Assembly (NCBI GenBank): GCA_963827655.1
Contig: CAWHCF010000049.1
Location: 320,001-384,000, forward strand
Length of the DNA: 64,000 nucleotides
Direction of reading: 5' to 3'
Source of the DNA: an uncultured Acidobacteriota bacterium
Lineage (GTDB): Bacteria; Acidobacteriota; UBA6911
Part shown: piece after piece, positions 28,563 to 47,570 of the stretch
Position numbering within the stretch: the stretch's first letter is position 1
How the letters are laid out: each line of letters opens with the position of its first letter
Notes under the pieces: generated by a model
Seen by the model: only the letters and a program-made list of their open reading frames with translations
Told to the model about the DNA's origin: nothing
Database searches by the model: none
Made by a program: the position numbers and the translations under genes

Positions 28563-31263
28563 GAACACATCCCTCTACATTTACAAAGAAGTCGAACGGC
28601 CTCCTCTCTGCCAGTCCAATAACAAGCTGGACCAGGACTGACTCATTGGTGGTCAGCGTACCATCAGCGCCAGCATCAATGGCTTGCTTGCTGCCGGGCC
28701 CTCCGTTCCCCTCTGTGGCGCTGAGGAGCCTATTCCCATTGGACAGCGTCACGACATTCACTTTGAGGGGTTGGAAGATCTCCTTCGTGCTGGCATTGGT
28801 GAGCCTGGCGGTAATCGTAAACCTGCCAGCGGGCGCACCCGGGCCGGGGGTGGGATCAAAGGAGGTTTGTGTCACAACAAAGGTGACCAGATCATTGACA
28901 ATCTGTTGCTCACACACCGGTAGTGGAACACCAGCGGAGAGATTCGGGTCGAGCTTGGCGACAAAGACTTCACCGTCGCCTGCAAAGGTCATGTCCGCTG
29001 AGCCTGCCCCGATGCCGGAAAAGTCGGGGGAGGTTGTACCACCCGCCACATAAACATTCCCCATGCTGTCCAGGGCGACGGCACTAGCGCCCTCAAAACC
29101 ACTCCCCCCCAGGAAGGTGGCCGCCAAGAGCGTGCCGAGCTTGGCATCGAGCTTCGCCACAAAGGCGTCATTGGATCCACCAAACGTGCTATCGGCCGAG
29201 CCCACTCCGATCCCAGGAAAGTTGGGGGAGTTTGTAAGACCCGCCACATAGACGTTCCCCATGCTGTCCAGGGCAAGGGCACCAGCGATTTCAGTAAATA
29301 AAGAAGCAGGGCTCCCCCCCAGGAAGGTGGCTCCCAGGAGCGTGCCGAGGTTGGCATCGAGCTTCGCCACAAAGCCTTCCCAGGCTCCAGCAAAAGTACT
29401 GTCGGCCGAGCCCGCCCCAATGCCCGGAAAGTCGGGGGAGGTTGTACCACCCGCCACATAAACATTCCCCATGCTGTCCAGGGCGAGGGCAAAACCTGCG
29501 TCAGAATCACCAATTATGCGGAGACCACTCCCCCCCAGGAAGGTGGCCGCCAGCAGTCTGCTGAGATTGGCATCGAGCTTCGCCACAAAGGCTTCCTGGC
29601 CTCCAGAAAAGGCGCTGTCGGCCGAGCCCACTCCGATCCCAGGAAAGTCGACAGATCCTGTCCAACCCGCCACATAGACATTACCCAGGCTGTCCAGGGT
29701 GAGGACATCGGCGCCTTCACCACGGCTCCCCCCCAGGAAGGTGGCGGCCAGCAGTCTGCTAAGATTGGCATCGAGCTTCGCCACAAAGGCTTCACTGAAT
29801 TCAGAAAAGGTGCTGTCGGCCGAGCCCACCCCGACCCCGGGGAAGTCTGAGGACCCTGTGAAACCCGCCACATAGACATTTCCCATGCTGTCCAGGGCGA
29901 GGGCATTGGCGGAATCACCACTGCTCCCCCCCAGGAAGGTAGCCGCCAAGAGCGTGCTGAGATTGGCATCGAGCTTCGCCACAAAGGCTTCACCGAATTC
30001 AGAAAAGGTGCTGTCGGCTGAGCCCGCCCCGACCCCGGGGAAGTCTGAGGACCCTGAGGAACCCGCCACATAGACATTCCCGATGCTGTCCAGGGCGAGG
30101 GCTCCAGCGAAGTCTTCAGCACTTCCCCCAAGGAAGGTGGCCGCCAGGAGCGTGCTGAGATTGGCATCGAGCTTGGCAACAAAGACTTCACGGTTTCCTG
30201 CAAAGGTGCTGTCGGCCGAGCCCGCCCCGATCCTGGGGAAGTCTGAGGACACTGTGGAACCCGCCACATACACATTCCCCAGGCTGTCCATGGCGAGGGC
30301 AGCAGCGAAGTCTTCAGCACTCCCCCCCAGGAAGGTGGCGGCCAGAATAGGATCGATCACCAACTCTTTTGTCTTGTCATACGCGCCAACCTCAAAGCCG
30401 TACTCATTGCCCTTTACTACATAGGCTACCGCCACCAACTCTTGCTTGCCTCTCTCTTCTTGATAGGCCACAGGCTTGGAGAATGTCACTGTCCCCAGCT
30501 TTGTCTTGACTTCCAATTCCCCCTGCTTGGTGATCTTTAATCCCTTCCCGCCTCGCATCCGCAGCTTGATCTGCTCCGGCCGACCTCCAGGTCGCACATA
30601 AAAGAGCTTTTCCGTCGTGTGCCCATAGGCCTTGAGCTTCACTTCCACTCCCGCATACACTTCTCCCAGACTCACACAATCGTATGTGGGAATATCATTC
30701 GTCCACTTCGATCGGTTATTCCCCTTGAAGTAGTTCAGCTTGGTAGTCGTCTTGCCCTCTCCCTGCACTGCTGTCACTGCTCCCCCTACCAGCTCCTCCC
30801 GCAAAGCGACTGCCTGGCCTGGACTTTTTCCCTTCCCCTGGGACAGGGCATACACGAACGCACCTTTCTGTGTTACAAAAACAGTTCCCCCAAAGATAGG
30901 GGCATAGAAGGTGACCTCTGCTTCCGTCTGTCCCTGATTCTTGATAAAAGGAATATGCAGCTTCCCGATCTTCTGCCGGACTGCCTTTAGGAGCTTGTCC
31001 TTGTCGCTATGCGCACGTGATGGCTGCGAGACGTCCTGGTTACCATCGGCGGAGTGGCGATCGGCCCCCAGAGCCCCTGGCCCACCAAAGTGTCCGAAAG
31101 CCAGGAGAGAGACGATCAAGGCCACCACAGACATACGCAGCGCTCTGCCGGACGGCCTCTTGCAACTGTTTTCTGCCTTGGTTTGCCGCTTCAGCTTCGG
31201 CTCCCGCCATGTTTTTGTGTTCTTTTGTGCTGCTTGCGATAGTCGAACTGCTTCCTCTTCCAT
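28552..31263 (-). CDS. Secreted SBBP (seven-bladed beta-propeller) repeat protein, copy 1, with shared C-terminal domain
   Basis: Intact ORF (track start GTG31281; RBS-supported ATG MEEEA at 31263). N-domain FIKNQGQ..LNYFKGN..ELVIDP; 7 x ATFLGGS..ALALDSMGNVYVAG.T.S.DFP..EAFVAKLD. Confidence 0.88.
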   Translation of the reverse strand: MEEEAVRLSQAAQKNTKTWREPKLKRQTKAENSCKRPSGRALRMSVVALIVSLLAFGHFGGPGALGADRHSADGNQDVSQPSRAHSDKDKLLKAVRQKIGKLHIPFIKNQGQTEAEVTFYAPIFGGTVFVTQKGAFVYALSQGKGKSPGQAVALREELVGGAVTAVQGEGKTTTKLNYFKGNNRSKWTNDIPTYDCVSLGEVYAGVEVKLKAYGHTTEKLFYVRPGGRPEQIKLRMRGGKGLKITKQGELEVKTKLGTVTFSKPVAYQEERGKQELVAVAYVVKGNEYGFEVGAYDKTKELVIDPILAATFLGGSAEDFAAALAMDSLGNVYVAGSTVSSDFPRIGAGSADSTFAGNREVFVAKLDANLSTLLAATFLGGSAEDFAGALALDSIGNVYVAGSSGSSDFPGVGAGSADSTFSEFGEAFVAKLDANLSTLLAATFLGGSSGDSANALALDSMGNVYVAGFTGSSDFPGVGVGSADSTFSEFSEAFVAKLDANLSRLLAATFLGGSRGEGADVLTLDSLGNVYVAGWTGSVDFPGIGVGSADSAFSGGQEAFVAKLDANLSRLLAATFLGGSGLRIIGDSDAGFALALDSMGNVYVAGGTTSPDFPGIGAGSADSTFAGAWEGFVAKLDANLGTLLGATFLGGSPASLFTEIAGALALDSMGNVYVAGLTNSPNFPGIGVGSADSTFGGSNDAFVAKLDAKLGTLLAATFLGGSGFEGASAVALDSMGNVYVAGGTTSPDFSGIGAGSADMTFAGDGEVFVAKLDPNLSAGVPLPVCEQQIVNDLVTFVVTQTSFDPTPGPGAPAGRFTITARLTNASTKEIFQPLKVNVVTLSNGNRLLSATEGNGGPGSKQAIDAGADGTLTTNESVLVQLVIGLAERRPFDFFVNVEGCVRKR

Positions 31264-31394
31264 GTTTATCTCCCTAGCCACTAGTTTCGCGGCCTCAATC
31301 TGCCATTAGAGGATCCAGGTGCTCTGGCAACTGATCTTTTGCATAGTTTCTCCATCTCTTTCCGTCCCTATGCTGTCGTCTAGGAACAAAAGAT

Positions 31395-31715
31395 GGCTTA
31401 CCAGAGCACTAGCGCATCCCACCCAGAGGAGCTTGTGCAATCCAGATACTTCACACGGTACCAGCACGGGAAATGATCCAGCGGCCTCCACGCTCCGTTC
31501 TGCACTCGCAGGTGCTTTCGGCCAGGCAGGTCGTCACCCGGTGGCGAAACTGCGCGCACGCTTCGCCAGACTCACCCGTGCAGATTGCCCATGAGAATCC
31601 GTCGCCGGTGTGGCGCTGCGCAGCCGGAGCCTGACAGCAGAGCGTGAGATTCCCCCGATAATCCAGGTTGAATTCCTCGAGTTCGAGCGGGGCACAGGAG
31701 GACAAAGGAGCGTCG
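31395..31715 (-). pseudogene. Radical SAM/SPASM C-terminal relic immediately upstream of SBBP copy 1
   Basis: Stitched CAPLELEEFNLDYRGNLTLCCQ..MGNLH..QFRHRVTTCLAE..LDHFPCWYRVKYLD versus intact ..NFRLRVARYLDD..LDHFPCWYCMKYLD. Confidence 0.82.
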
Positions 31716-31829
31716 CGCGCTGGGCTCTATTTGTTCGGCGTGCCTGTTTCGGAAGCTGTGCATCCGACATGCCCCCCGGAATATCCGCTCGAGACAGGGA
31801 TAGCCGGATGCACCCTGGTTACCGCTTAC
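31716..31829 (-). mobile_element. IS66 left-end copy 3 (diverged)
   Basis: GTAAGCGGTAACCAGGGTGCATC terminus at 31829; tnpA start MSDAQLPKQARRTNRAQRA. Confidence 0.78.
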
Positions 31830-34555
31830 GAATACACCCCTCTACATCCACAAAGAAGCTGAACGGCCTACTCTCTACCAGTCCAATAACAAACTGGACC
31901 AGGACTGACTCATTGGTGGTCAGGGCATCATCAGCGCCAGCATTAATGCTCTGCTTGCTGCCGGGCCTCCTCCGTTCCCCTCTGTAGCGCTGAGGAGCCT
32001 ATTCCCATTGGACAGTGTCTTGACACTCACTTTGAGGGGTTGGAAGATGCCCTCCGTGCTGGCATTGGTAAGCCTGGCGTTAATCGTAAATCTGCCAGCG
32101 GGCGCACCCGGACCGGGGGTGGGGTCAAAGGAGGTTTGTGTCACAACAAAGGTGACCAGGTCATTGACAATCTGTTGCTCACACACCGGTAGTGGAACAC
32201 CAGCGGAAAGATTCGCGTCGAGCTTGGCGACAAAGACTTCACCGTCGCCTGCAAAGGTCATGTCCGCTGAGCCTGCCCCGATGCCGGGAAAGTCAGCGGA
32301 GGTTGTACCACCCGCCACATAAACATTCCCCATGCTGTCCAGGGCGACGGCACTAGCGCCCGTCAGAACTACTCCCCCCCAGGAAGGTGGCCGCCAAGAG
32401 CGTGCCGAGATTGGCATCAAGCTTCGCCACAAAGGCTTCATTGAATCCACCAAACGTGCTATCGGCCGAGCCCACTCCGATCCCAGGAAAGTCGCGGGAG
32501 TTTGTAAGACCCGCCACATAGACATTCCCCATGCTGTCCAGGGCAAGGGCACAAGCGATTTCAGAAAATAAAAAAGCAGCTCCCCCCCAGGAAGGTGGCT
32601 CCCAGGAGCGTGCCGAGATTGGCATCGAGCTTCGCCACAAAGCCTTCACCATACAACAAAAGTACTGTCGGCCGAGCCCGCCCCGATGCCCGGAAAGTCG
32701 GCGGAGCTTGTGATACCCGCCACATAAACATTCCCCATGCTGTCCAGGGCGAGGGCACCAACGCCGTCAGAATCACCAAAAATGCGGACCACTCCCTCCC
32801 AGGAAGGTGGCCGCCAGCAGTCTGCCGAGATTGGCATCGAGCTTCGCCACAAAGGCTTCCTGGCTTCCAGAAAAGGCGCTGTCGGCCGAGCCCCCCGGAC
32901 CCCGGGGAAGTCTGAGGATTGTGTGAAACCCGCCACATAGACATTCCCCATGCTGTCCAGGGCGAGGGTCACCAGCCGGAATACCACCGCCGCTCCCCCC
33001 CAGGAAGGTGGCCGCCAGAAGTCTGCTAAGATTGGCATCGAGCTTCGCCACAAAGGCCTCACCGTCTCCAGAAAAGGCGCTGTCGGCCGAGCCCGCCCCG
33101 ATCCCGGGAAAGTCGGCGGAAAAGGTGAAGCCCGCCACATAGACATTCCCGATGCTGTCCAGGGCGAGGGCATTGGCGGAATCAGCACTGCTCCCCCCCA
33201 GGAAGGTGGCCCCCAGCAGTCTGCTAAGATTGGAATCGAGCTTCGCCACAAAGGCTTCACCGCCTCAGCAAAGATGCTGTCGGCTGAGCCCGCCCCGACC
33301 CCGGGGAAGTCTGAGGACTCTGTAAAACCCGCCACATAGACATTCCCCATGCTGTCCAGGGCGAGGGCACAACCTCAGCGAAATCGACCACTCCCCCCCA
33401 GGAAGGTGGCCGCCAGCAGACTACTGAGATTGGCATCGAGCTTCGCCACAAAGGCTTCACTGTCTCCTGCAAGGATGACAAGGTGCTGTCGGCTGAGCCC
33501 GCCCCGACCCCGGGAAAGTCGGTGGATTCTGTAGAACCCGCCACATAGACATTCCCCATGCTGTCCAGGGCGATGGCGAAAGGTTGCAGCGAAATCGTCA
33601 AAACCACTCCCCCCAAGGAAGGTCGCCGCCAGGATAGGATCGATCACCAACTCTTTTGTCTTGTCATACTCGCCAACCTTAAAGCCGTACTCATTTCCCT
33701 TTACTACATAGGCCACCGCCACCAACTCTTGTTTGCCTCCCTCGTCCTGATAGGCCACAGGCTTGGAGAATCTCACTGTTCCCAGCTTTGTCTCGACCTC
33801 CAGTTCCCCCTGCTCAGCGACCTTTACTCCCTTCCCACCCTGCACCCGCACCTTGATCTGTTCCGGCCGAGCTCCAGGTCGCACATAAAAGAGCTTCTCC
33901 GCCGTGTGCCCATAGGCCTTGAGCTTCACTTCCACTCCCTCATACACTTCTCCCAGACTCACACAATCGTATGCGGGAATATCATTCGTCCACTTCGATC
34001 GGTTATTCCCCTTGAAGTAGTTCAGCTTGGTAGTCGTCTGACCCTCTCCCTCCACTGCTTTCACTTTTCCCCCTACGAGCTCCTCCCGCAAAGCGACTCC
34101 CCGGCTTGGCCTCTTTCCCTCCCCTTGGGACAGGGCATACACGAACGCGCCTTTCTGTGTGACAAAAACCGTTCCCCCAAAGGTAGGGGCATAGAAGGTG
34201 ACCTCTGCATCCGTCTGTCCCTGATTCTTGATAAAAGGAATATGCAGCTTCCCGATCTTCTGCCGGACTGCCTTTAGGACGTTGTCCTTGTGGCCAAGCG
34301 CATGTGATGGCTGCGAGACGAAAACGCCCTGGGTACCATCGGCGGAGTGGCGATCGGCCCCTAGAGCCCCTGCTCCACCAAAGTGTCCGAGAGCCAGCAG
34401 AGAGACGATTAAGGCCACCAGAGACACACGCAGCGCTCTGCCGGACGGCCTCTTGCCACTGTTTTCTGCCTTGGTTGCCGCTTCAGCTTCGGCTCCCGCC
34501 ATGTTTTTGTGCTCTCCTGTGCTGCTTGCGATAGCCGAACTGTTTCCTCTTCCAT
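31819..34555 (-). CDS. SBBP repeat protein, copy 2 (many frameshifts; pseudogene or sequencing error)
   Basis: Collinear with copy 1 from MEEETVRLSQAAQESTKTWREPKLK through 7 SBBP repeats to ..VEGCIRKR*; pieces in ORFs 33375..34502, 32773..33249 and 31920..32552. Confidence 0.78.
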
Positions 34556-34689: not shown

Positions 34690-35090
34690 AGAAGAGCTTG
34701 TGCAATCCATGGAGCATTGCTCAAGGATTGTGTTGAAAGTGCTGCTAAGTCCCCGGCGGCGGGAGAGTGGCTCAGAAAGGAGCTTCGCTGAATTATCCAG
34801 GGGCACGCCCTCCGGCACCGACTGCCGTCTTTTTCAGGTGCCAGATGGCTGCTTCCACCTCACGCCGCTCGTGCGGGGCGAGGTCAAGCTGCTGGAACGC
34901 TGTCTCCGGCGTGGGCATGACGTGCCCAAAGCGCACCCCCTGGTTCCCAAGACGGCCCGCGAGCCCAACCATTTCGATGTATAAGCATTTTCTATCCCCA
35001 AGAGGGTTGGAGAGGCAAGCGAAATTCCGGCGCGGGCGAGGGTCGGCAGGTCTGTTCGGTGGCACCTGTTGAGAATTCGACTTGACATCT
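34690..35090 (-). pseudogene. Radical SAM gene relic (middle part) upstream of SBBP copy 2
   Basis: IEMVGLAGRLGNQGVRFGHVMPTPETAFQQLDLAPHERREVEAAIWHLKK matches intact AEMIELAARLGSSGVRFGHLMPTPETALRGLDLSPVQRRGVEAEIWRLQK. Confidence 0.82.
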
Positions 35091-35321
35091 CGGAAGCGGC
35101 ACATGACCATAGGGGCAGCTTACTTCACTCTGGAGCGGGTTCACTCTACTGGTGTTTACGCCTGCTGCGGAGGTAGCGCCCTTGTTCTGAGATGCGATAA
35201 GAAGAATTCTCCCCAAGCCAAACTCTGCCCGAGCTGGTAAGGGATGGCCGGGTTGCCGCGGCCGGCAGCATTCAGCCACCAACGGTGGCCTGGGGGGATT
35301 CTTGACTTTCAGGGTAACGTG

Positions 35322-35826
35322 ATGTTGGCTTGCTGTCGATCTTTTCGTACCGTCCGAGAACGCGTCGCCCAGGCATGGCTTGCCGCTCGTCTAGGCAGTT
35401 TCCTTTGTCTACTGCCGGTTCTTCTTCGTATCTACTCTCTTCCGCGCGTCCTGCAGCGGCTCGGGAAACCTTCGCAAGACCCCTGGGGGAGGTTTTTGCA
35501 GTTCGAATCAATTGTTCAGGTTGTCAGGAGGATGAGCAACTTGCCGTTTTTACGTCCCCCTCTCTTTCCCCGCTCCTGTCTTCTTCATTCTCTGATCTAC
35601 TACCACGCGTTGCGCGGGCGCGGGATACACCGTACAGATTCATTTTGGGATTCGCAGGACCGGGGCGGAACTGCAAGGTCATAGCTGGCTAACCATACCC
35701 AAAATGCCAGCCGCCCAAGGAAATCGCACGAAAGCGTTTAATACAATTTTTTCGTACCCTTCGACTTCATTCTTGTCTTCTGGCCAGGAGGCCAACAGAA
35801 TTGAGAACGAAGTTAAGTCCACTTAG
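35322..35826 (+). CDS. Lasso-peptide-B2-like leader peptidase (transglutaminase-like Cys protease), frameshift at ~35620
   Basis: FPRSCLLHSLIYYHALR (catalytic Cys), then shifted frame GYTVQIHFGIRRTGAELQGHSWLT (catalytic His in GHxW), stop TAG 35824-26. Start uncertain (35244 or 35322). Confidence 0.8.
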
Positions 35827-35839
35827 CATGGAGGCATCG

Positions 35840-36019
35840 ATGGACGAAAAGAAAACAGAAAATTCGCTCGAAGAACACGACCAGGAGAAATCTGTCGCTT
35901 TTTCGCCGCCACGCAAAAAGGCCTGGGAAGAGCCGAGGCTGTCGTATGTCAAACCCAAGCTTACGATACATGGGTCGCTGAAGGAGCTGACTGGTTTCTT
36001 CGGCGGATTTACTCCCTGA
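35840..36019 (+). CDS. RiPP precursor peptide (59 aa) with lasso-type leader
   Basis: GGAGG RBS; MDEKKTENSLEEHDQEKSVAFSPPRKKAWEEPRLSYVKPKLTIHGSLKELTGFFGGFTP contains the YxxPxL-x3-G-x5-T leader signature; flanked by B2 and PqqD genes. Confidence 0.85.
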   Translation: MDEKKTENSLEEHDQEKSVAFSPPRKKAWEEPRLSYVKPKLTIHGSLKELTGFFGGFTP

Positions 36020-36169
36020 TGACTTTTGTACTTTTGGAGGAAAGGCGATCGCCGTCCTGTAAGCGGATAAGGATCGAGAGGACGGTCTGAGAGATGGGAC
36101 GCCAATCGGAAGGGCCGTCGAATCCCAAGTGCAAACGTAACGCCGCGCTACTGAATACCTCAGGCAAAA

Positions 36170-37303
36170 TTGAAGCCCATCCTTACCTACCCAAAGCAAC
36201 CGAGAAGAGGGAAGCGCACTTACTACGCCCTTCACGATCTCTTGCTGGAGGTGGAAGAAGAAACAGAGGGAGACGGAAAGGATCTGGCACGGCTTCTGTG
36301 CGACCTGACGTGTGTGCAAGCCGGGCCTCGGGCCCACAACCCAAGTCTTCGAATCACCGTCGCCAATGACGTGAATTTGCGCAGAATCCCGAGAGGTTGC
36401 CGGGAGGTTCTTCAGGCTGATGGATTCAGCGGGCTCGAGAGAGCGGGTGAGTTCTACTTGACCGACGGCTCATCTCTGTTTCGCCTGCGGCCTTTGCTGT
36501 CCCGGGGGGATGCTCAGATAGCTCCTTCGTTTTTTGATAAACCGCCAATCCTTCAAAGAAACTTCTGGGCTTTTGGGCTACTGAAACTCCTGAGACCCTT
36601 GGGTGTGTATAGTCTTCATGCCGCCGGTGTGGCCGCTAGCAAGGAACTGGGCGTCTTGATCGTCGGGGAATCGGGCAGTGGGAAATCCACTCTGGCGTTA
36701 GACTTGATCCGACAAGGCTGGAGCTACCTTGGGGATGATGCGGTACTCCTCCGGATGCAGCCGGAGGGCGTGGAGGCGCTGGCATTCCGTAGGAATTTCT
36801 ATGTCGATGCTAGCGCCGGTGGAGACAATTTAGATTTTCCCTTAGGCGAGCATGTGCCGGATTCCTTTGGGAGGAGAAGGCGAATGGTACATGTCGAAGA
36901 AGCCCGTCCAGAACAATACATTGCCGCGTGCATCCCGCGTGTTCTTCTATTCTCAAAAATCATTGCCGGCTCGCAGAGTACGCTCGCTCCTTTGGACCGT
37001 AGCATCGCCCTCAAGCGCTTGCTCGCCGCCAGTGGCCCGCAATTGTTTGACCGAAACACCATGGCTGAACACCTGGAACTCCTTAGTGTTCTCTTGCGGC
37101 AGACGGTTAGCTACCAGTTAACCGCCGGGCGCGACCTTTACCGCAATCCTGTCAAACTCGCGAATCTGCTTCGTGCTTCATTTCATAATTACGGTGACTT
37201 TGCGCCGCCGCGGGGGATGGCGGGCGTTGCATTGCCTCCGAGAGGAAAAAGAACACCGCCGCGCAAGCCAGCTTCAAGTAGCATAGTTATGAAAGAAGAC
37301 TGA
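36170..37303 (+). CDS. HPr-kinase-related P-loop kinase (RiPP-cluster type)
   Basis: LHAAGVA..GVLIVGESGSGKSTLAL..GWSYLGDDAVLL. Confidence 0.82.
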   Translation: MKPILTYPKQPRRGKRTYYALHDLLLEVEEETEGDGKDLARLLCDLTCVQAGPRAHNPSLRITVANDVNLRRIPRGCREVLQADGFSGLERAGEFYLTDGSSLFRLRPLLSRGDAQIAPSFFDKPPILQRNFWAFGLLKLLRPLGVYSLHAAGVAASKELGVLIVGESGSGKSTLALDLIRQGWSYLGDDAVLLRMQPEGVEALAFRRNFYVDASAGGDNLDFPLGEHVPDSFGRRRRMVHVEEARPEQYIAACIPRVLLFSKIIAGSQSTLAPLDRSIALKRLLAASGPQLFDRNTMAEHLELLSVLLRQTVSYQLTAGRDLYRNPVKLANLLRASFHNYGDFAPPRGMAGVALPPRGKRTPPRKPASSSIVMKED

Positions 37304-37321
37304 GGCCCCAGGACAGACGAC

Positions 37322-38371
37322 ATGGCGCGACTTGTTATAGAGCTGACCAATCGGTGCAACCTGATGTGTGAACACTGCTTCGACGAGAGGCATGCTGGCA
37401 CCGGGGACCTGCCGTTGGAAGTCATCGACAAAGTGCTTGGGGAAGGGAAGAGTTGTGGTATCGACCACCTGGCTTTTACTGGCGGAGAGCCGACCATTCA
37501 TCGTCAGTTTCATGAAATCGTGCGTCGCGTCTGCAATGCTGCGTACACCTTTAGCCTCGTTAGCAACGGCACTACTTTTCCCGAAGTGTATCCGTTGCTT
37601 GTCGAGAACCAAAGATGGTTCAAGGGCGTAACCTTCAGCCTTGATGGAGCACGACAGGAAACCCATGATGCGTTGCGGGGAAATGGATCGTATCGTCGAG
37701 TAGCAAAGGCAGTCAGCATCTGTGCTTTCAAGAACATCCCCTTTACCCTCAATATGGTCCTGACTGCCAAGAATCGAACAGAAATAGCAGAAATGATCGA
37801 ACTGGCTGCCCGATTGGGAAGTAGCGGGGTGCGCTTCGGCCACCTGATGCCGACACCTGAGACGGCACTGCGAGGTCTCGATCTTTCCCCTGTGCAACGG
37901 CGGGGAGTGGAAGCAGAGATCTGGCGACTCCAGAAGAGTGCTCCGGTGCCGGTCTATATGGCGCCCGGATACTACAGCGAATCCCCCTTCTTTCCGTGTG
38001 CCCCCCTGGAACTTGAGGAATTCAACCTGGACCACCGGGGGAACGTTACCCTCTGCTGTCAGCTTTCAGGCTATTCAGGACCAGTATCCGGCACTGACGT
38101 CATAGGCAATCTGCGCGAGGTAAGCCTCGCCGAAGCGTGCAACAACTTCCGACTGCGAGTGGCTAGATACCTGGACGACAAGCGGGATCGGATCCGCCAA
38201 GGAGCATTTAGCGATCTGGACCATTTTCCTTGCTGGTACTGCATGAAATATCTGGACAAAGTGACCCGACTCAAAAACTTTCCACAGCACTCGTGGGCCC
38301 ACGAGAATGCCGAGATTATTGCTGAGGGAGTACATGTTCACTCTGGATCAAAAGCTTGGAGTTCACCCTGA
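37322..38371 (+). CDS. Radical SAM protein with SPASM/twitch-like C-terminal Cys region (peptide maturase)
   Basis: ELTNRCNLMCEHC (CxxxCxxC), FTGGEP, SLDG..HD..RG.GSY; C-terminal PC..GNVTLCC..IGNL..CWYC. Confidence 0.92.
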   Translation: MARLVIELTNRCNLMCEHCFDERHAGTGDLPLEVIDKVLGEGKSCGIDHLAFTGGEPTIHRQFHEIVRRVCNAAYTFSLVSNGTTFPEVYPLLVENQRWFKGVTFSLDGARQETHDALRGNGSYRRVAKAVSICAFKNIPFTLNMVLTAKNRTEIAEMIELAARLGSSGVRFGHLMPTPETALRGLDLSPVQRRGVEAEIWRLQKSAPVPVYMAPGYYSESPFFPCAPLELEEFNLDHRGNVTLCCQLSGYSGPVSGTDVIGNLREVSLAEACNNFRLRVARYLDDKRDRIRQGAFSDLDHFPCWYCMKYLDKVTRLKNFPQHSWAHENAEIIAEGVHVHSGSKAWSSP

Positions 38372-38618
38372 GGTTGTTGATACCGAACTCGACACGAGTG
38401 AAACGGCTCTGCTCCACCTCGGAAGCAAAATCTACTACAGCCTCAACGCGACAGGAGTGCGGGTTTGGCAGGGTCTCAAGCAGGGACTCACGCTGAACCA
38501 GATCAGTCAGAGTCTTCAGGAAGAGTTTGATGTGGATGCTCAGACGGCCAACCGCGGTGTGCTTGAACTCGTTGAGGATCTCAGCCAGCAAGGGCTGGTT
38601 CAAGTTCTCGACCCATGA
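38334..38618 (+). CDS. PqqD-family RiPP recognition element (RRE)
   Basis: LLHLGSKIYYSLNATGVRVWQGL..ISQSLQEEFDVD..VLELVEDLSQQGLV; GAGGGAG RBS. Confidence 0.9.
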   Translation: MFTLDQKLGVHPEVVDTELDTSETALLHLGSKIYYSLNATGVRVWQGLKQGLTLNQISQSLQEEFDVDAQTANRGVLELVEDLSQQGLVQVLDP

Positions 38619-39134
38619 TCATCCGTCCGGCCAGGGGTGAAGATCTCCCGAGTTTGGCCGTCCTCTTTCGACAAGAGATCGCGTATCAGAGGCAGATCTG
38701 TCCATTTTGGGAGCTCTCGCCTCAGTTCGATTGTCTGAGCTTTTTGCAGACCAAGCTGAGCAATCCCCACGAGCGGCTGTTTGTAGCGGAGCGAAACGCG
38801 CAACTATTAGGTTATATCCTTGTCCGGGTCATCCAGGCGCCTCACCATCGTTTTCCGAGAAACATCTTTAGACATTTTTTTTCAGAGAAATCAACTCTTG
38901 CATTCATCCGGCCGCCCAACACTGGCTCCATTGAGGACTGCTATGTCGAACCACAGTCGCGGCGGCAGCGAGTGGGCAGCGCTCTGTTGAAACAGGGTCT
39001 TGAGATGGTTGGAGGCACAAGGGGTAAGGCACATAGAGCTCGCAGTCTCCGCGGGAAATGGAGATGGCATTGCTTTTTGGGAGAGGCAGGGCTTCGTCTC
39101 GTCTCGATTCCTTATGTTCAAGGAGATCGGCTGA
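38615..39134 (+). CDS. GNAT-family N-acetyltransferase (frameshift at ~39005)
   Basis: MIIRPA..DL, CYVEPQSRRQRVGSALL (motif A); shifted tail WLEAQGVRHIELAVSAGN..IAFWERQGF*. Confidence 0.85.
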
Positions 39135-39137
39135 ATT

Positions 39138-40397
39138 ATGCAATGGATTCCTCCGTTGAATCTATCTCCTGAATGGAGATTTGTACTCGCGTCCGCCCGA
39201 ACCGACATTCCTCTGCATGACCTGCAGATTGGTCTAGCTAGCCAGGATTTAGATTGGGATCGCGTGACAGAAATCTCATACCGGCATGGTATAGCGCCGC
39301 TGATCTATTACAACCTCAAGCGCCGCGAGGTTACCGGTGTCGTGACAAGCAGTGCGTTGAACAAATTGAAGGAATCCTATTACGGCAATGCAGCCAGAAA
39401 TGGACTTCTTTACCGTGAACTGCATAAGGTCCTGGGATCCCTCAAAGATGTGGGAATTGAGGTTATTGTGCTGAAGGGCGCAATGCTTGCGGAGACCGTA
39501 TATCCGAATCGAGCTCTAAGACCGATGAACGATATCGATCTTCTGGTCAGAAAGGAAGCTGTATCGAGAGCCGAGGATAAGCTCGCTGAGCTTGGCTACA
39601 GTTTGCGCGAAAGTCCCAGATCGAAAGAATGGTTTAAAGAATATCATCACCATTTACCTCTTGTCAGGTACGAGGCCGGTCCCCTCGAAATTCACTTGGA
39701 AGTTCATTGGGATATCCAAGGCCCAGGGAAACCGTTCAAGATAGGGATCGACAGAATTTGGAGCACAGCACTGCCGGTCACGATAGCCGGTGTTGAGTGC
39801 TCCGTGCTGTCCAGGGAGGACTTGCTACTGCATCTATGCCTCCATACCTGTCACCCCCACAAGTTGACCGGCGGGATAAGATCTCTTTGCGATATCGCCG
39901 AAACTATCCAGCGGTATGGTCGACAGATCGACTGGAATCAGTTACAGACTCGTTCGTCTCGATGGCGAATAAATCAATACGTTTACCTCACGCTGCGTCT
40001 CGCCAAGGAGCTATTGGGAGCGGAGGTTCCGGATCCCGTATTAGACTCTCTTGAGCCCCACGGCTTCGACCGCGGGCTGGTCCGGTGGGCAAAAGAAGAG
40101 ATTCTGGGAGACAAGGAAGCTTCCCCAATCTTTCCTGAGCTCGCGCAACTATGGAGCGGGCGCCGTATTAAAGACAGGTTGCAGATCCTGGTGAGGATAC
40201 TTTCCCCAAAATTAATCGCAAAGTATCAGGGAATTTCGCCGGCGTCAAAGAGAATCTATCTCCATTATCCGGCACGGCTCAAAACCCTTTTCTTGCGGTA
40301 TGGTCCGGTGCTGTGGGGCCTGGTTCGTTGCGATCGGAAACTAACAGCGGCAGCGGAGGGAAAAGCGCGATTGGCGGAGTGGCTGAATAAGTGCTGA
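39138..40397 (+). CDS. Nucleotidyltransferase family protein (NTP_transf_5-type, as in lasso/RRE clusters)
   Basis: DWD....HGIAPL, IVLKGAMLAETVYP...RPMNDIDLLV, LEVHW, LLHLCLH, LCDIAE. Confidence 0.88.
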   Translation: MQWIPPLNLSPEWRFVLASARTDIPLHDLQIGLASQDLDWDRVTEISYRHGIAPLIYYNLKRREVTGVVTSSALNKLKESYYGNAARNGLLYRELHKVLGSLKDVGIEVIVLKGAMLAETVYPNRALRPMNDIDLLVRKEAVSRAEDKLAELGYSLRESPRSKEWFKEYHHHLPLVRYEAGPLEIHLEVHWDIQGPGKPFKIGIDRIWSTALPVTIAGVECSVLSREDLLLHLCLHTCHPHKLTGGIRSLCDIAETIQRYGRQIDWNQLQTRSSRWRINQYVYLTLRLAKELLGAEVPDPVLDSLEPHGFDRGLVRWAKEEILGDKEASPIFPELAQLWSGRRIKDRLQILVRILSPKLIAKYQGISPASKRIYLHYPARLKTLFLRYGPVLWGLVRCDRKLTAAAEGKARLAEWLNKC

Positions 40398-40777: not shown

Positions 40778-41795
40778 ATGAATACACAGAACAGTAACAC
40801 GATCGGTTTCAACAGATGGTTTGGGATGATGTGCGTGTGGGGAGTGGCGGCCCTGATTGCGCTGACCGCGACGTCTGCGGAGGCCGCGGGATTTAACGTC
40901 AATAGCGAGGTGACGTTCACTCCGCTCCCCTCGACATACACGACGACCACCAGCACGACCGGCTGTCCGGCAGCATTTTCCGGAAAGTTCACCTTTACCG
41001 CCCTGTTAACGAATAAGACCGGAAGCCCGGCGATGCCGGGTCTGACCGTCCGCGTCGTGACGCTCACCAACGGTAATCTGCTGCTGGACCCGCAAACCAA
41101 CGCCGTCCTAGGCGGAGAGGGCGCGGAGATGACAGTACCCAAGGTGGAGCAGTATGCCGACGGCCTGCTCAGTCCGGGCGAGTCGGTGAACGTCCCGTTC
41201 TCGGTGTGCTTAAAGACATTTCAACCGTTTCAGTTTTTCGTGGACGTGTTCGGTGTCGTGACCCGATTGGTCAGCATCAACCGGTTTGGAACCGGGTCCG
41301 GCAATGGCTCTTCGTTTGTCCGCCCAGCGGCGATCAGCGCGGACGGCCGTTTCGTGGCATTCGACAGCGCAGCGAGCGATTTGGTGGCAAACGATACCAA
41401 CGGCTACCGACGACGTGTTCGTGCGGGATCTGCAGCTGGGGACGACTACGTTGGTGAGCATCAACCGGTTTGGAACCGGGTCCGGCAATGGCTCCTCCTT
41501 CGCCTCCGTGATCAGCGCGGACGGCCGTTTCGTGGCGTTTCCAGCGCAGCGAGCGATTTGGTGGCAAACGATACCAACGGTATACCAACGACGTGTTCGT
41601 GCGGGATCTGCAGCTGGGGACGACTACGTTGGTGAGCATCAACCGGTTTGGAACCGGGTCCGGCAATGGCTCTCGGTTGGTCTCCGTGATCAGCGCGGAC
41701 GGCCGTTTCGTGGCATTCAGAGCGTTGCGAGCGATTTGGTGGCCAACGATACCAACGGTACCAGCGACCTGTTCGTGCGTCCTGTCGCGCCCTGA
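40778..41795 (+). CDS. Secreted protein: shared ~115-aa domain plus 3 TolB/PD40-like repeats (frameshifted)
   Basis: Signal peptide; domain ..GNLLL..LSPGESVNVPF..FQFFVDVFG; repeats ISADGRFVAF.S.ASDLVANDTNG..DVFVRDL. Confidence 0.75.
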
Positions 41796-41858
41796 GGAAG
41801 TGCGGAATTCAGGATCTTTCACAGGCGTTGCACAATCATTCACTGCCCCGACTTAGTG

Positions 41859-41942: not shown

Positions 41943-44649
41943 ATGGAAGAGGAAGAAGTTCGGTTATCACAAGCAGCACAGGAGAGCACAAAAACATGGC
42001 GGGAGCCGAAGCTGAAGTGGCAAACCAAGGCAGAAAACAGTTGCAAGAGGCCGTCCGGCAGAGCGCTGCGTGTGTCTCTGGTGGCCTTAATCGTCTCTCT
42101 GCTGGCTCTCGGACACTTTGCTGGGGCAGGGGCTCTAGGGGCCGATCGCCACTCCGCCGATGGTACCCAGGGCGTTTTCGTCTCGCAGCCATCAGATGCG
42201 CATAGCGACAAGGACAACATCCTAAAAAACAGTCCGGCAGAAGATCGGGAAGCTACATATTCCTTTTATCAAGAATCAGGGACAGACGGATTCAGAGGTC
42301 AGCTTCTATGCCCCTACCTTTGGCGGAACGGTTTTTGTCACACAGAAAGGCGCATTCGTGTATGCCCTGTCCCAGGGGAAGGGAAAGAGGCAACAGGGGA
42401 GTCGCTTTGCGGGAGGAGCTGGTAGGGGGAGCAGTGAAAGCAGTGCAGGGAGAGGGCAAGACGACTACCAAGCTGAACTACTTCAAGGGGAATAACCGAT
42501 CGAAGTGGACGAATCACATTCCCACATACGATTGTGTAAGTCTGGGAGAAGTGTATGCGGGGGTGGAAGTGAAGCTCAAGGCCTATGGGCACACGGCGGA
42601 AAAGCTCTTTTATGTGCGACCTGGAGCTCGGCCGGAGCAGATCGAGCTGCGGATGCGAGGCGGGAAGGGATTAAAGATCACCAAGCAGGGAGAACTGGAG
42701 GTCGAGACGGAGCTGGGGACAGTGACATTCTCCAAGCCTGTGGCCTATCAGGAAGAGGGAGGCAAGCAAGAGTTGGTGGCGGTGGCCTATGTAGTAAAGG
42801 GCAGTGAGTACGGTTTTAAGGTTGGCGAGTATGACAAGACAAAAGAGTTGGTGATCGATCCTATCCTGGCGGCCACCTTCCTGGGGGGGAGTGGTCTTGA
42901 CGCCATTAGTGACTTCGCCCTGGACAGCATGGGGAACGTCTATGTGGCGGGTGTCACAACCTCTCCACGACTTTCCCCACATCGGGACGGGCTCAGCCGA
43001 CAATACCTTTGCAGGCGGCACTGAAGCTTTTGTCGCCAAGCTCGATGCCACTCTCAGCACGCTCCTGGCGGCCACCTTCCTCGGGGGAGTGGCTTTTTTG
43101 GTGAGGAGGCTGGGGCCCTTGCCCTGGACAGCGTGGGGAATGTCGATGTGGCGGGTTCCACAGACTCCTCAGACTTTCCCGGGGTCGGGGCGGGCTCGGC
43201 CGACAGCACCCTTGTGGAGGGCAGTGACGTTTTTGTGGCGAAGCTCGATGCCAATCTCCGCACGCTCCTGGCGGCCACCTTCCTGGGGGGGAGTATTCAA
43301 GACTTCGCTGGTGCCCTCGCCCTGGACAGCATGGGGAATGTCTATGCGGCGGGTTTCACCGTTCCGTCGACTTTCCTGGGATCGGAGTGGGCTCGGCCGA
43401 CAGTACCTTTGCTGGAGCCTGGGAAGGCTTTTGTGGCGAAGCTCGATGCCAATCTCAGGACACTGCTGGCCGTCACCTTCCTGGGGGGGAGTGGTGTTGA
43501 CGCCATTAATGCCCTCACCCTGGACAGCATGGGGAATGTCTATGTGGCGGGTTGGACAGCCTCCTCAGACTTCCCCGGGGTCGGGGCGGGCTCGGCCGAC
43601 AGCACCTTTGCTGGAGGCAGTGAAGCCTTTGTGGCGAAGCTCGATGCCAATCTAAGCAGACTGCTGGCGGCCACCTTCCTGGGGGGGAGTGCTGTTAATA
43701 ATGAACAGGTTCATGCGGCCTCGCCTTGGACGGCACGGGGAATGTCTATGTGACGGGCTTCACAGAATCCGCCGACTTTCCTGGGGTCGGGGGGCGGTTC
43801 GGCCGACAGCACCTTTGCTGGAGGCAGTGAAGCCTTTGTGGCGAAGCTCGATGCCAATCTTAGCAGACTGTCTGGCGGCCACCTTCCTGGGGGGGAGTGG
43901 TGTTGACTCCGCTCTCTGCCCTCGCCTTGGACGGCACGGGGAATATCTATGTGACGGGTGGCACAGGATCCACCGACTTTCCTGGGGTCGGGGGCGGTTC
44001 GGCCGATAGTCACCTTTGCTGGAAGCAATGAAGCCTTTGTCGCCAAGCTCGATGCCAATCTCGGCACTCTGCGAGCGGCCACCTTCCTGGGGGGAGCAGT
44101 AGTGAAGGCGCCGGTGCCCTCGCCCTGGACAGCATGGGGAATGTCTATGTGGCGGGTTCCACGGAGTCCTCAGACTTCCCCGGGGTCGGGGCGGGCTCAG
44201 CTGACGTGACCATTGCCGGAGGCAATGAAGCCTTTGTCGCCAAACTCGACCCGAATCTCTCTCGTGATGTTCCACTACCGGTGTGTAAGCAACAGATTGT
44301 CAATGACCTGGTCACCTTTGTTGTGACACAAACCTCCTTGGACCCTACCCCCGGCCCTCGTGCGCCCGCTGGCAGGTATACGATTACCGCCAGGCTCACC
44401 AACGCCAGCACGAAGGACATCTTCCAACCTCTCAAAGTGAACGTCGTGACGCTGTCCAATGGGAATAGGCTCGTCAGCGCCACAGAGGGGAACGGAGGGC
44501 CCGGCAGCAAGCAGGGCATTAATGCTGGCGCTGATGATACCCTGACCGCCAATGAGTCAGTCCTAGTCCAGTTTGTTATCGGATTGGTCGAGAGGAGCCC
44601 CTTCAGTTTCTTTGTAAATGTAGAGGGATGTGTTCGCGCTGACCCCTAG
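41943..44649 (+). CDS. SBBP repeat protein, copy 3 (opposite strand; many frameshifts) with un-interrupted C-terminus VEGCVRADP
   Basis: GGAGG RBS, MEEEEVRLSQAAQESTKTWREPKLK, 7 SBBP repeats, C-domain in ORF 44134..44649. Confidence 0.8.
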
Positions 44650-44934: not shown

Positions 44935-45480
44935 ATGAGCCTACTGTCATGCCGGTTGAGAAACGTAGTGACGCTGGTGGCTTTCTTTGGCGCCTTTGCG
45001 ACCGTTGGACTTGCCCGTGACTGGAGCTTGAATCTGAGACAGGGGAATCAAGATTCAGCAAGATTCACTCTAAAGGTTAAAGACGGGAGGGTGTCGATTG
45101 GGGCGAAAGACATCTCCGTCGCAGAAATCTTCAAGGACCTCAGTCAGCAGACCGGAATACCTATTGAAAATACGCTGAGAACTGAAGAAAGGATCACGAT
45201 CCAGTTTAGCGATTTGCCGATGGCGGAAGCGGTGGCGAGGCTGGCTAACGTATTGATCTTCTATGACAAGAATCCTGCCGATCCAACATCTCCGCGGATC
45301 GTCAAGATCGTAGTATCTGCGAAGGGGAAGGAAGTTTCGGCTACCGCCCTCAAGCCTGCCCCTGCCGCCGGTGCGGTTGGAGAACCTGAGAAGACTCCGG
45401 CACCCAAGCCTTTCGAGTTTGTCTTGGACCCGTCCAAGCCTTCACAGGCGCCCGAGAAGAAGACTCGCAAGGAGAACTAG
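44935..45480 (+). CDS. Exported protein with secretin/TonB N-terminal (STN/N0)-like domain
   Basis: Signal peptide; VSIGAKDISVAEIFKDLSQQTGIPI..ITIQFSDLPMAEAVARL pattern; Pro-rich tail. Confidence 0.6.
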   Translation: MSLLSCRLRNVVTLVAFFGAFATVGLARDWSLNLRQGNQDSARFTLKVKDGRVSIGAKDISVAEIFKDLSQQTGIPIENTLRTEERITIQFSDLPMAEAVARLANVLIFYDKNPADPTSPRIVKIVVSAKGKEVSATALKPAPAAGAVGEPEKTPAPKPFEFVLDPSKPSQAPEKKTRKEN

Positions 45481-45938: not shown

Positions 45939-47570
45939 ATGAAAAATTTACTATGGCTTGGGATTCTCCTGGGGTTTGTCGGTGTTCGATTAGCTTCCGC
46001 ACAGGAGAAAGTCGGTCAAGGCGTTATCGAGATTCTACAAAGAGAGGGTGGGGCGAACGTAGTCATCGCACTCGTGGAGCCTCCATCCATGCGGGCATCG
46101 CAGATTGATCTGCCCATCTTGAGGAGCGAGATTGCCAGTCTACAAGCTCAGGTGTTATCCACCTTATATGCTTCGGATTACCGTGAGAGACATAGATTCC
46201 GAGCTGTGCCCGCCTTGGCGGGCCGGGTAAGCAGGGCTGGACTTGCAGAACTTGTAGCAAATCCCAACGTGGTGAAAATCGACCTGGATGTTGGCGGTAC
46301 CGGGAGCCTAGCAAACAGTGTCCCGCTCATTCGTGCTGATGATTGGCACGCACTCGGAATCACGGGTAGGGGGGTGGTAGTGGCCGTACTTGATACGGGG
46401 ATTGATACGGATCATGTCGACCTAGCCGATGATCTTGTTCACCAAGAATGTTTTCTTGATTTCGACGGAGCAATTAACGGGGTAGGGCGCTGTCCCAACG
46501 GTAGTGATAGACAATCGGGAGACGGCGCGGCAGAAAGCGGACTAAACCACGGGGTGATGACGACAGGGATAATCACTTCACGAGGGACCGTGAGTTCAGT
46601 TGGCGTTGCACCGGATGCTAAAATCGTGTCGATTAAGGTCCTCGATAACACCCAACCTGCTGGCATATTCGCATTTTTCTCAGAGTTAGTAGCCGCGTTG
46701 GATTTCATTATCAACAATCGCCCCGATGTGAAAGTCATCAATATGAGCCTTGGGACGTTTGCTTTGTTCGCGGGTAACTGTGATAGCGCGACAGCCTTCA
46801 ACATGGCCGGCGCAGCTGCCATCAATACGTTACGGAAAAATGGGGTAATCGCCTTTGCGGCTTCAGGTAATAATGGATCAGGAACTCAGATGACGTCTCC
46901 TGCCTGTATCAGTAACGTGGTATCGGTGGGAGCTACGAATAATGTCGATAATGTAGCAGCTTTCACAAACAGTAATGCTTTTCTCGATCTTATGGCGCCC
47001 GGGGTTTATATCACATCTACGGCGTTGGCTAATGGAATCGCAACCGGGTCCGGAACGAGCTTCGCAAGTCCTCACGCGGCGGGTTGTGCCGCTCTGTTCG
47101 TTGATGCGGGGATAGCTGTAAGTCCTGCCCAGATTGAGGCGCGCCTAAAAGCATCGACGGTACGGATTACTGATCCGAAAAATGGTCTTGCATTTCCAAG
47201 GCTCGACTGCTTTGTTGGTGTGGAGATTGTTAACGACTTGGTCTCAGTGGCTCCATTAGTCACTTCCTCAAGTACTACTCCGGTTCCGAATGGTCCTGCT
47301 GGAATATTCGGTATTATAACAACCTTTACCAACACCAGTTCCACTTCTATACTGAATCCATTCTTTGGAGTTGTAGAACTCTCCGGTGGAAACTTGTTGC
47401 TCAATGCCGATAGTGGTCCAGGTGGAGTTGGAGCCACTTTGACTCCTAATGTAGGCGCTGATCGGATTTTATCACCGGGAGAATCTTTTAATGTGATTTT
47501 TATAGTTGGTCTTCAATCCAGTCAGCGTTTCACATTCTTTGTCAATCTGTCAGGAGTGCCAGATCCATAA
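45939..47570 (+). CDS. Secreted S8 (subtilisin-like) serine protease with shared C-terminal domain
   Basis: Triad motifs VAVLDTG, NHG, GTSFASPH; oxyanion AASGN; signal plus propeptide. Confidence 0.92.
   Translation: MKNLLWLGILLGFVGVRLASAQEKVGQGVIEILQREGGANVVIALVEPPSMRASQIDLPILRSEIASLQAQVLSTLYASDYRERHRFRAVPALAGRVSRAGLAELVANPNVVKIDLDVGGTGSLANSVPLIRADDWHALGITGRGVVVAVLDTGIDTDHVDLADDLVHQECFLDFDGAINGVGRCPNGSDRQSGDGAAESGLNHGVMTTGIITSRGTVSSVGVAPDAKIVSIKVLDNTQPAGIFAFFSELVAALDFIINNRPDVKVINMSLGTFALFAGNCDSATAFNMAGAAAINTLRKNGVIAFAASGNNGSGTQMTSPACISNVVSVGATNNVDNVAAFTNSNAFLDLMAPGVYITSTALANGIATGSGTSFASPHAAGCAALFVDAGIAVSPAQIEARLKASTVRITDPKNGLAFPRLDCFVGVEIVNDLVSVAPLVTSSSTTPVPNGPAGIFGIITTFTNTSSTSILNPFFGVVELSGGNLLLNADSGPGGVGATLTPNVGADRILSPGESFNVIFIVGLQSSQRFTFFVNLSGVPDP

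Follow-up and report, generated by a model that had tools for sequence, protein, structure and literature searches.

A 64,000-nucleotide stretch from an uncultured Acidobacteriota bacterium (contig CAWHCF010000049.1, positions 320,001 to 384,000; hereafter the window, whose own numbering is used throughout) carries an operon that probably makes a small peptide that is synthesised on the ribosome and modified after translation (a RiPP). The operon appears to reuse the leader recognition and leader removal of lasso peptides, with a radical S-adenosylmethionine (radical-SAM) enzyme in the place of the lasso cyclase.

Gene content of the operon

Open reading frames (ORFs) and family profile searches placed seven genes head to tail on the plus strand at 35244-40397, including a precursor peptide and a discrete RiPP recognition element (RRE):

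35244..35619, plus: B2-type (transglutaminase-like) leader peptidase, N-terminal part with the catalytic Cys; covers the N-terminal two thirds of the B2 proteins of 47 relatives
35620..35826, plus: B2 peptidase, C-terminal part in the +1 frame with the catalytic His; PF13471 positions 72-116, E 1.5e-4
35840..36019, plus: precursor peptide, 59 residues; NF033521 lasso_leader_L3, 21.6 bits against a cut-off of 19
36170..37303, plus: HprK/PEPCK-fold kinase-like protein with P-loop and His-Lys-Asp-Asp tetrad, 377 residues; PF07475, 36.3 bits against 33.3
37322..38371, plus: radical-SAM enzyme; PF04055, 81 bits
38307..38618, plus: discrete PqqD-family RRE, counterpart of lasso B1; PF05402, 63 bits
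38615..39134, plus: GNAT acetyltransferase in two frames; PF00583 on both pieces
39138..40397, plus: PF14907 (NTP_transf_5) nucleotidyltransferase-fold protein; PF14907, E 2.2e-65

An earlier note, made from the letters of the window, had claimed the same contiguous set (B2 peptidase, precursor, HPr-kinase-like protein, radical-SAM enzyme, PqqD, GNAT and nucleotidyltransferase), and both the ORFs and the family matches agree with it. Translation of B2 starts at 35244 or at an in-frame ATG at 35322. A scan for promoters and terminators returned sites no commoner than in shuffled sequence.

In the window precursor the lasso-type leader is YxxPxLx3Gx5T, and the core behind it is FFGGFTP. In the kinase-like protein, H150, K172, D189 and D190 are invariant in 58/58 and 37/37 aligned sequences; according to the accessible text of a review (PMC9266682), this His-Lys-Asp-Asp tetrad is essential in lasso-peptide kinases as determined by mutagenesis. 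The AF2 model of the protein, with a predicted local distance difference test score (pLDDT) of 87, comes closest in fold to PEPCK and HprK/P. The last ~40 of the 377 residues are not conserved and have a pLDDT <50, and relatives have 313-378 residues, mostly ~335. Because this tail is not conserved, the alignments suggest that the true stop may be earlier, close to or overlapping the radical-SAM start as in relatives. In contigs of relatives, moreover, compensating one-base indels are found at 37222-37276, where the kinase gene approaches its 3' end.

The radical-SAM protein begins directly with its CX3CX2C motif (residues 12-19) and therefore has no fused N-terminal RRE. Its invariant Cys residues are 12, 16, 19, 45, 226, 245, 246, 304 and 307. 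The SPASM label given to it earlier is borderline: PF13186 scores 21.3 bits against a cut-off of 21.5, and the short, Cys-rich, SPASM- or twitch-like C-terminus has only five conserved Cys, C226-x13-G-x4-C245-C246 and C304-x2-C307, where a full SPASM domain has seven for two auxiliary clusters. The structural model (pLDDT 76) is nearest to the solved folds of SkfB, BlsE, SuiB and CteB, with a TM-score of ~0.6; SkfB and BlsE have a single-cluster twitch domain. No NCBIfam model came near its cut-off with this protein.

For PqqD, the best NCBIfam models were lasso PqqD chaperones, at 49.7 (cut-off 70) and 46 bits, both below their cut-offs. A model of the complex of PqqD with the precursor reached an ipSAE of 0.62, against 0.01 for the best control; 58 of 80 solved complexes attain this ipSAE mark, as do 2 of 110 mismatched pairs. 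Three runs shared at least 88% of contacts, the pLDDT of the partner was 55, and the modelled interface comprises precursor residues 33-47, that is, the leader motif. At the level of this model the discrete PqqD is predicted to bind the leader motif, and since solved complexes of lasso B1 with leaders exist, the pass may only reflect likeness to them. A sequence search of the PF14907 transferase against solved structures returned nothing meaningful.

A +1 frameshift splits B2 near 35619 and another splits GNAT near 39003. To check them, near-identical contigs from four soil-metagenome runs, ~97% identical and derived from relatives, were aligned to the operon. At position 35619 the sole covering contig (run X1; 16 mismatches in 672 bases) has one base fewer, and at 39003 both covering contigs (runs X1 and X2) have one base fewer; these deletions are exactly the two +1 shifts of the window. 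The B2 pieces and the GNAT pieces each lie in a single frame in all related loci (for GNAT, e.g. L022 and L025). Comparable splits affect the radical-SAM or kinase genes of related loci in metagenome-assembled genomes (MAGs; loci L114, L118, L125 and L129) and the transferase gene of a relative's genome, G014, and therefore point to indel-prone assemblies. Since the contigs of relatives lack both bases, the relatives are single-frame and other MAG loci are similarly split, the two extra bases are, judged from these alignments, more likely an assembly error than a sign of decay. The presence of both genes, as claimed earlier, is confirmed, with the reservations that each is frameshifted in the assembly and that GNAT is optional in the family (5/43 loci).

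B2 was not recognised at default thresholds, either as pieces or as a whole, and its N-terminal piece alone has no Pfam match; PF13471 is matched by the C-terminal piece only, with 22 bits against a cut-off of 26. In the alignment of relatives, the B2 Cys and His are each kept in 48/48 rows with a residue, and the position His+12, for the acidic member of a Cys-His-acid triad, is E/D in 42/47. A search with PF13471 across the whole genome to which the window belongs gave no match.

Recurrence of the gene set and the search for a cyclase

The radical-SAM protein has 881 homologues at E<=1e-10, of which the best 120 are 65-91% identical to it; one is named Terriglobia by its source. Among the genomes of relatives only 2/60 gave a match at E<=1e-20, and in one of these two, G014, the operon is intact and syntenic. 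Pattern scanning yielded 80 loci from metagenomes (out of 500 relatives) and 80 from genomes (out of 219). The genome loci came from an alignment-based scan (a scan with the single radical-SAM protein in genome contigs gave none), and 39 of them were assigned to the family. Their MAG labels include Nitrospira, anammox Planctomycetes, Trueperaceae, Chloroflexi, Thermodesulfobacteriota, Acidobacteriota and others, some of which may be unreliable. Altogether 120 family loci from metagenomes and MAGs were examined. Gene counts were made by tblastn with the proteins of the window and of G014, use only loci with enough flanking DNA (eligible loci) and are lower bounds.

The core order across the family is precursor, HprK-like kinase, radical-SAM enzyme and PqqD, usually with B2 and the PF14907 transferase as well:

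Kinase directly upstream of the radical-SAM gene: 78/80 eligible loci
Precursor present: 59/72 eligible loci
PqqD present: 85/95 eligible loci
PF14907 transferase present: 32/43 eligible loci
B2 present: 30/43 eligible loci (13 upstream, 17 downstream)
GNAT present: 5/43 eligible loci

Because it recurs in 120 related loci, the arrangement of genes is, on comparative sequence grounds, far beyond chance. The 59-residue ORF, on whose conservation beside orthologous enzymes the earlier note had made its proposal depend, is kept in the 59 loci counted above, with leader and core motifs that are nearly invariant. Across 54 aligned precursors P39 is invariant, and P32, L34, F36 (Y in the window), L41, G45, T51, F53, F54, G55 and F57 are each conserved in at least 90%. 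The family leader is [F/Y]xxPxLx3Gx5T, which fits the lasso pattern [Y/W]xxPx[L/V/I] with Thr at position -2, and the family core motif is FFGxF[S/T]P. This leader corresponds to the lasso RRE-binding motif with a penultimate leader Thr as described in the available text of PMC13381572. The lasso leader model NF033521 is matched by 21/54 precursors at E<=0.01. The residue right after the conserved Thr is Gly in 45/66 and Ala in 12/66 distinct sequences; it is followed by 0-7 variable residues and then by the core motif, with these properties:

FFGxF: 51/66 distinct cores
FFxxF: 58/66 distinct cores
Ser/Thr after the third Phe (x6): 53/65 distinct cores
Pro next after the Ser/Thr position: 58/65 distinct cores
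Core ending at that Pro: 27/65 distinct cores, the others having tails of 1-25 residues
Ser/Thr flanking the third Phe on one side or both (x4 or x6): 64/65 distinct cores
Asp/Glu at core positions 7-9: 4/66 distinct cores
No acidic residue at all: 52/66 distinct cores
Any Cys: 2/66 distinct cores

As the sequences are related, these counts overstate the independent support. The sole core without Ser/Thr flanking the third Phe has a Tyr there. The candidate phosphorylatable Ser/Thr is close to the C-terminus without being the last residue, and no single position holds it invariantly. Acidic residues and Cys are mostly lacking, so that, on the evidence of the aligned cores, the great majority can form neither a lasso macrolactam nor a sacti-type thioether. 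Tandem arrays of two or three precursor genes occur in some loci (L025:1693-2227, L103), and one of the L025 copies has a degenerate core without FFGxF.

No gene of the Asn-synthase type (PF00733) was found on the contig of the window, so that the earlier statement that the window lacks an asparagine-synthetase-like cyclase extends to the whole contig. The window's own genome has seven PF00733 matches, all on other contigs (C44, C2, C8, C6 and C17), and tblastn with these seven proteins gave 0 matches at E<=1e-3 in the 120 related loci. G014, which is 88% complete and has the intact operon, has one weak PF00733 match, on another contig. PF00733 was also not among the top 25 of the 97 Pfam families listed for 48 large flanking ORFs, which is weak evidence alone. 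Gaps of 1.7 kb between kinase and radical-SAM genes in loci L057-L067 were inspected for a cyclase and contained no long ORF, or only an ORF of 113 residues, which from its sequence we take to be a toxin-antitoxin-like insert. A cognate cyclase elsewhere and an Asp/Glu-containing precursor had been named in advance as findings that would speak against the proposal; the searches gave no tblastn match in the related loci and one weak off-contig match in G014 for the former, and an acidic residue at core positions 7-9 in only four cores for the latter.

The proposal itself, a candidate new RiPP class encoded by a lasso-like operon without a cyclase, is supported by the conservation in 120 loci and by the absence of a cyclase there. 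We consider it probable, from gene content and motifs, that the locus is a biosynthetic operon for a small RiPP in which lasso leader recognition and removal are reused and a radical-SAM enzyme stands in for the lasso cyclase. The gene set is widespread and represents a candidate new RiPP family.

A shared domain in secreted proteins around the operon

An unannotated domain of ~115 residues, which ends in a conserved ...SPGE...F.FFVDVLG, is common to secreted proteins around the operon. This operon-linked domain is a new observation that was overlooked in the first reading of the window. In the window it is carried by three DUF7948/SBBP-repeat proteins, one S8 subtilase, one repeat protein and a further fragment. 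By tblastn and profile search, the domain is confined within the 8.2-Mb genome to the window, where its six places span 24.5 to 47.6 kb and are all at most 12 kb from the operon. The features flanking the operon are:

24543..24905, minus: further copy of the domain (tblastn and profile)
28288..28448, minus: radical-SAM remnant, residues 220-273
28552..31281, minus: secreted DUF7948/SBBP-repeat protein, 909 residues, whose last ~130 residues are the domain (28555-28956)
31440..31714, minus: radical-SAM remnant, residues 220-312
31822..34502, minus: second SBBP-repeat gene in several frames, with the domain at its end (pieces 31822-31965 and 31944-32225)
34775..34975, minus: remnant of a second radical-SAM gene, residues 157-223, 61% identical
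40778..41856, plus: secreted repeat protein in three overlapping frames, with the domain (40883-41287) directly after the signal peptide
41943..44649, plus: third SBBP-repeat gene in several frames, with the domain at its end (44242-44637)
44935..45480, plus: protein of 181 residues, no Pfam match; by tblastn near the operon in 17/62 loci of at least 7 kb
45939..47570, plus: secreted S8 subtilase (PF00082, E 6e-40), with the domain at its end (47199-47567)

The copy at 24543..24905 may be the C-terminus of a Kelch-repeat gene at 26427-28010, which has Kelch Pfam matches. Homologues of the 181-residue protein usually lie just upstream of B2 or of the precursor. An ORF of 134 residues at 45496-45900 (plus strand) repeats the signal peptide and the N-terminal, propeptide-like region of the subtilase at 45939, and looks like a truncated duplicate of its start. 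The three SBBP-repeat paralogues flank the operon in inverted orientation, two on the minus strand (28552-34502) and one on the plus strand (41943-44649). Two of the three, as well as the gene at 40778-41856, are broken into several frames.

The three remnants were found by tblastn of the radical-SAM protein against its own genome; they are 42-64% identical to it, belong to the same family and alternate with the SBBP-repeat genes, those at 31440-31714 and 28288-28448 each coming after an SBBP gene. Since an SBBP-domain gene lies between the radical-SAM and PqqD genes in the relatives L013, L092 and L129, the remnants look, from their order, like an inverted second copy of the operon, in which the unit of radical-SAM 3' end and SBBP gene was duplicated in tandem.

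In Pfam, any one family was matched by only 0-2 of 41 members of the domain at E<=0.1, and none fits. Matches in a protein atlas were to hypothetical clusters only, with a weak lead to cellulose-binding modules. The domain is present in 38/120 related loci and in 32/62 loci of at least 7 kb, and the distance from operon genes to the nearest copy is 0-2652 nt; in most cases that copy is immediately upstream, with the same orientation. In 15/15 cases of relatives checked by coordinates it is C-terminal on proteins with unrelated N-terminal parts, which include SBBP, subtilase, lactonase-like propeller, cadherin-like and other types.

Whole-genome profile searches for the domain were made in five genomes of relatives. 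The single match in G062 lies beside the operon, as do both matches in G061, beside the operon's two copies, and one of the two in G014, whose other match has no operon gene within 9 kb. G064 has a weak match inside the operon locus, and G063 a weak match only, distant from the operon. When 301 sampled genomes of the phylum were searched, 6 had the domain (E<=1e-8), 16 a related kinase (E<=1e-20) and 3 both; besides the window's own genome, the two sample genomes with both have the domain in a distant form and non-adjacent to the kinase. This test of co-occurrence is weak, because the exact operon is rare in the sample. The G061 doubling concerns two contigs of this Nitrospiraceae-labelled MAG (loci L096 and L098), which carry the whole operon and its domain-bearing neighbour twice with identical local coordinates; either a true duplication or a duplicate made in assembly may account for this.

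Proposed pathway, alternatives and known systems

The proposed pathway starts from what the sequences show, the lasso-type leader on the 59-residue precursor, the conserved gene set and the impossibility of a lasso ring for most cores; the chemistry that follows, namely radical-SAM modification, phosphorylation, nucleotidylation or glycosylation, and acetylation, is what we infer from it. PqqD would present the precursor to the leaderless radical-SAM enzyme, which would modify the FFGxF core; as our best guess, tentatively held, this step would be a crosslink within the molecule, either carbon-carbon or carbon-heteroatom, in which a Phe takes part. A three-residue cyclophane (triceptide) was set aside as the specific reading, the third residue of the FFG and FGx triplets often being Gly, which has no C-beta. 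The HprK-like kinase, with its tetrad intact, would phosphorylate the core Ser/Thr flanking the third Phe, a step for which we see about even chances. The PF14907 protein may then decorate the phosphate, by nucleotidylation or glycosylation, in analogy with PsmN, presumably also a PF14907 protein. The accessible text of PMC6993621 states that PsmN is required for the addition of hexose to phosphoserine. The B2 Cys peptidase would cleave one residue past the conserved Thr and GNAT, where encoded, would acetylate the new N-terminus.

Several observations weigh against this pathway. The peptide product is a prediction from the genes. In 12/65 cores the third Phe is followed not by Ser/Thr but by V, A, R, I, F, Y, Q or D, or by no residue, and the kinase gene persists in these loci, so that the position of the phospho-acceptor is not fixed. 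B2 is undetected in ~30% and the transferase in ~26% of eligible loci, where tblastn may miss divergent copies. No conserved exporter was found, with one ABC_tran match among the 48 large flanking ORFs. The B2 of the window has Gln at His+12 (Q also in L048) and lacks the Gly at His+7. The contigs used for the frameshift check belong to relatives and not to the strain of the window, where the frameshifts could be real. Finally, the tight link to domain-bearing secreted proteins suggests a role that lies outside the biosynthetic explanation.

That link leads to an alternative in which the biosynthesis is the same and the product, rather than being a free natural product such as an antibiotic, works with the neighbouring proteins through their domain as a ligand, anchor, cofactor-like subunit or regulator. 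It is suggested by the confinement of the domain to the surroundings of the operon in the window's own genome, by its closeness to operon genes in the 38 loci, by the strong genome-wide matches beside the operon in G062, G061 and G014, by a C-terminal placement on varied N-terminal parts that is typical of a binding or sorting module, and by the weak lead towards carbohydrate-binding modules. However, 30/62 loci of at least 7 kb have no copy by tblastn, the G063 match is weak and non-adjacent, domain and related kinase are apart in the two other sample genomes, and no exporter is encoded for the peptide. We regard this alternative as a minority possibility. The same limited credence is given to its specific form, in which operon and domain are one system and the modified, phosphorylated FFGxF peptide is a dedicated ligand, anchor or cofactor-like subunit recognised by a new C-terminal module of secreted enzymes and beta-propeller proteins. 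If true, it would be a peptide-based sorting, anchoring or activation system with new RiPP chemistry, and not an antibiotic pathway.

It is unlikely that the family is real and the window copy decaying, with B2 and GNAT as true pseudogenes and the product no longer made. The two +1 frameshifts, the Gln at the acidic position and the missing conserved Gly of B2, and the remnants of a second radical-SAM copy with several broken SBBP genes around the operon would fit such decay, but precisely these two extra bases are absent from the ~97% identical contigs of other samples, the kinase, radical-SAM, PqqD, transferase and precursor genes are all full length, and the related MAG loci and G014 are split alike.

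NCBIfam defines sets of HprK-like, radical-SAM and PqqD proteins, to which the window proteins have sub-threshold matches only. By comparison with one of them, the kinase-like protein might not phosphorylate the peptide at all and might instead serve the radical-SAM enzyme as a scaffold or an ATP-binding partner, comparable to ScmC, an uncharacterised member of SynChlorMet. Its place immediately upstream of the radical-SAM gene in 78/80 loci and the unfixed position of the hydroxyl in the core would suit a scaffold, whereas the invariant His, Lys, Asp and Asp, the Ser/Thr flanking the third Phe in 64/65 cores and the characterised relatives in lasso and linear polyphosphorylated peptide (LPP) pathways, which are true peptide kinases, speak for catalysis; we think the scaffold improbable.

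An ordinary lasso cluster with its cyclase and true precursor elsewhere in the genome would explain why leader, PqqD, B2, kinase and transferase are all lasso-type, but is contradicted by the evidence and hardly credible, as 52/66 cores have no Asp or Glu, the window core has only 7 residues, no cyclase was found in any of the 120 loci and none that is credible in G014, and the own genome has no other PF13471 gene.

Compared with known systems, the operon of the proposed RiPP family resembles the paeninodin and pseudomycoidin lasso clusters (A, B1, B2, C and D with kinase K and NTP-transferase N) in its [Y/W/F]xxPxL...T leader, discrete PqqD-type RRE and B2, and in its HprK-like kinase with the His-Lys-Asp-Asp tetrad and uncharacterised nucleotidyltransferase-fold protein. 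Unlike them, the family has no macrolactam synthetase, acidic acceptor or ABC exporter, has cores down to 7 residues and an added radical-SAM enzyme, and the Ser/Thr that probably accepts the phosphate is an internal or penultimate residue instead of the C-terminal one.

LPPs (lppA-K-B-S-D-N) are described in the available text of Popov et al. 2026 (PMC13381572) as Bacillota peptides that branched off from the lasso toolkit without its cyclase. As far as that text goes, they share with the family the lack of a cyclase, the derivation from lasso peptides, an RRE that binds a YxxP leader motif, the HprK kinase and the NTP-transferase. LPP clusters have an SpI-like leader peptidase, LppS, and an MsbA-like exporter; the peptidase of the window family is B2-type. 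In contrast to LPPs, the family has a central radical-SAM enzyme, short FFGxF cores and hosts labelled Acidobacteriota, Nitrospirota, Planctomycetota and others.

SynChlorMet and HPr-rel-A/B (NCBIfam TIGR04248-04251, TIGR04352 and TIGR04355; uncharacterised) also combine HprK-like, PqqD-like and radical-SAM proteins, whereas the family has one radical-SAM enzyme, a lasso-type precursor and a B2 peptidase. The likeness to these cassettes drawn in the earlier note is a resemblance only, every model falling far short of its cut-off (ScmE 76.5 against 400, ScmF 70 against 400, ScmD 23 against 100, HprK_rel_A 32 against 200 and HprK_rel_B 36.5 against 200). No match to ScmC was listed in the NCBIfam search of the window proteins.

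With the RRE-dependent radical-SAM maturases SkfB, SuiB (of streptide), CteB and PqqE (with PqqD), the enzyme shares the radical-SAM core, a Cys-rich C-terminal extension and the PqqD-type element; it differs in its identity of 14-22%, in an RRE that is a separate protein and in having only about five auxiliary Cys. The known crosslinks of these maturases are inapplicable here, because the substrate has no Cys, Lys or Trp, and unlike sactipeptides and ranthipeptides the family has a Cys thioether donor in only 2/66 cores. The available text of the RRE-Finder paper mentions ~300 lasso-type RRE hits beside radical-SAM enzymes, which were treated as false positives. A literature search found no study of this gene set and none joining HprK, radical SAM and RiPP; supplementary files, which were outside the search, may list such clusters.

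If the biosynthetic reading holds, an uncharacterised RiPP family would be present in MAGs labelled as many phyla, from uncultured bacteria of soil, sediment and wastewater. The family would then illustrate how module swapping gives rise to RiPP classes, here of the lasso cyclase for a radical-SAM enzyme with lasso leader, RRE and peptidase kept; a new radical-SAM reaction would take place on an all-Phe/Gly motif, and peptide phosphorylation would extend beyond lasso peptides and LPPs. According to the accessible text of PMC13381572, the purpose of the characterised phosphorylated lasso peptides and LPPs is still an open question, and the genomic link to a new domain of secreted proteins is a testable lead to the purpose of such peptides.

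Elsewhere in the window's own genome, at C4:157671-164609 (L172), an unrelated HprK-like kinase (28% identical) is paired with a PF14907-like transferase (24% identical). NCBIfam matches of this locus are all far below cut-off, and the pair sits among large membrane proteins, near another radical-SAM/SPASM gene.

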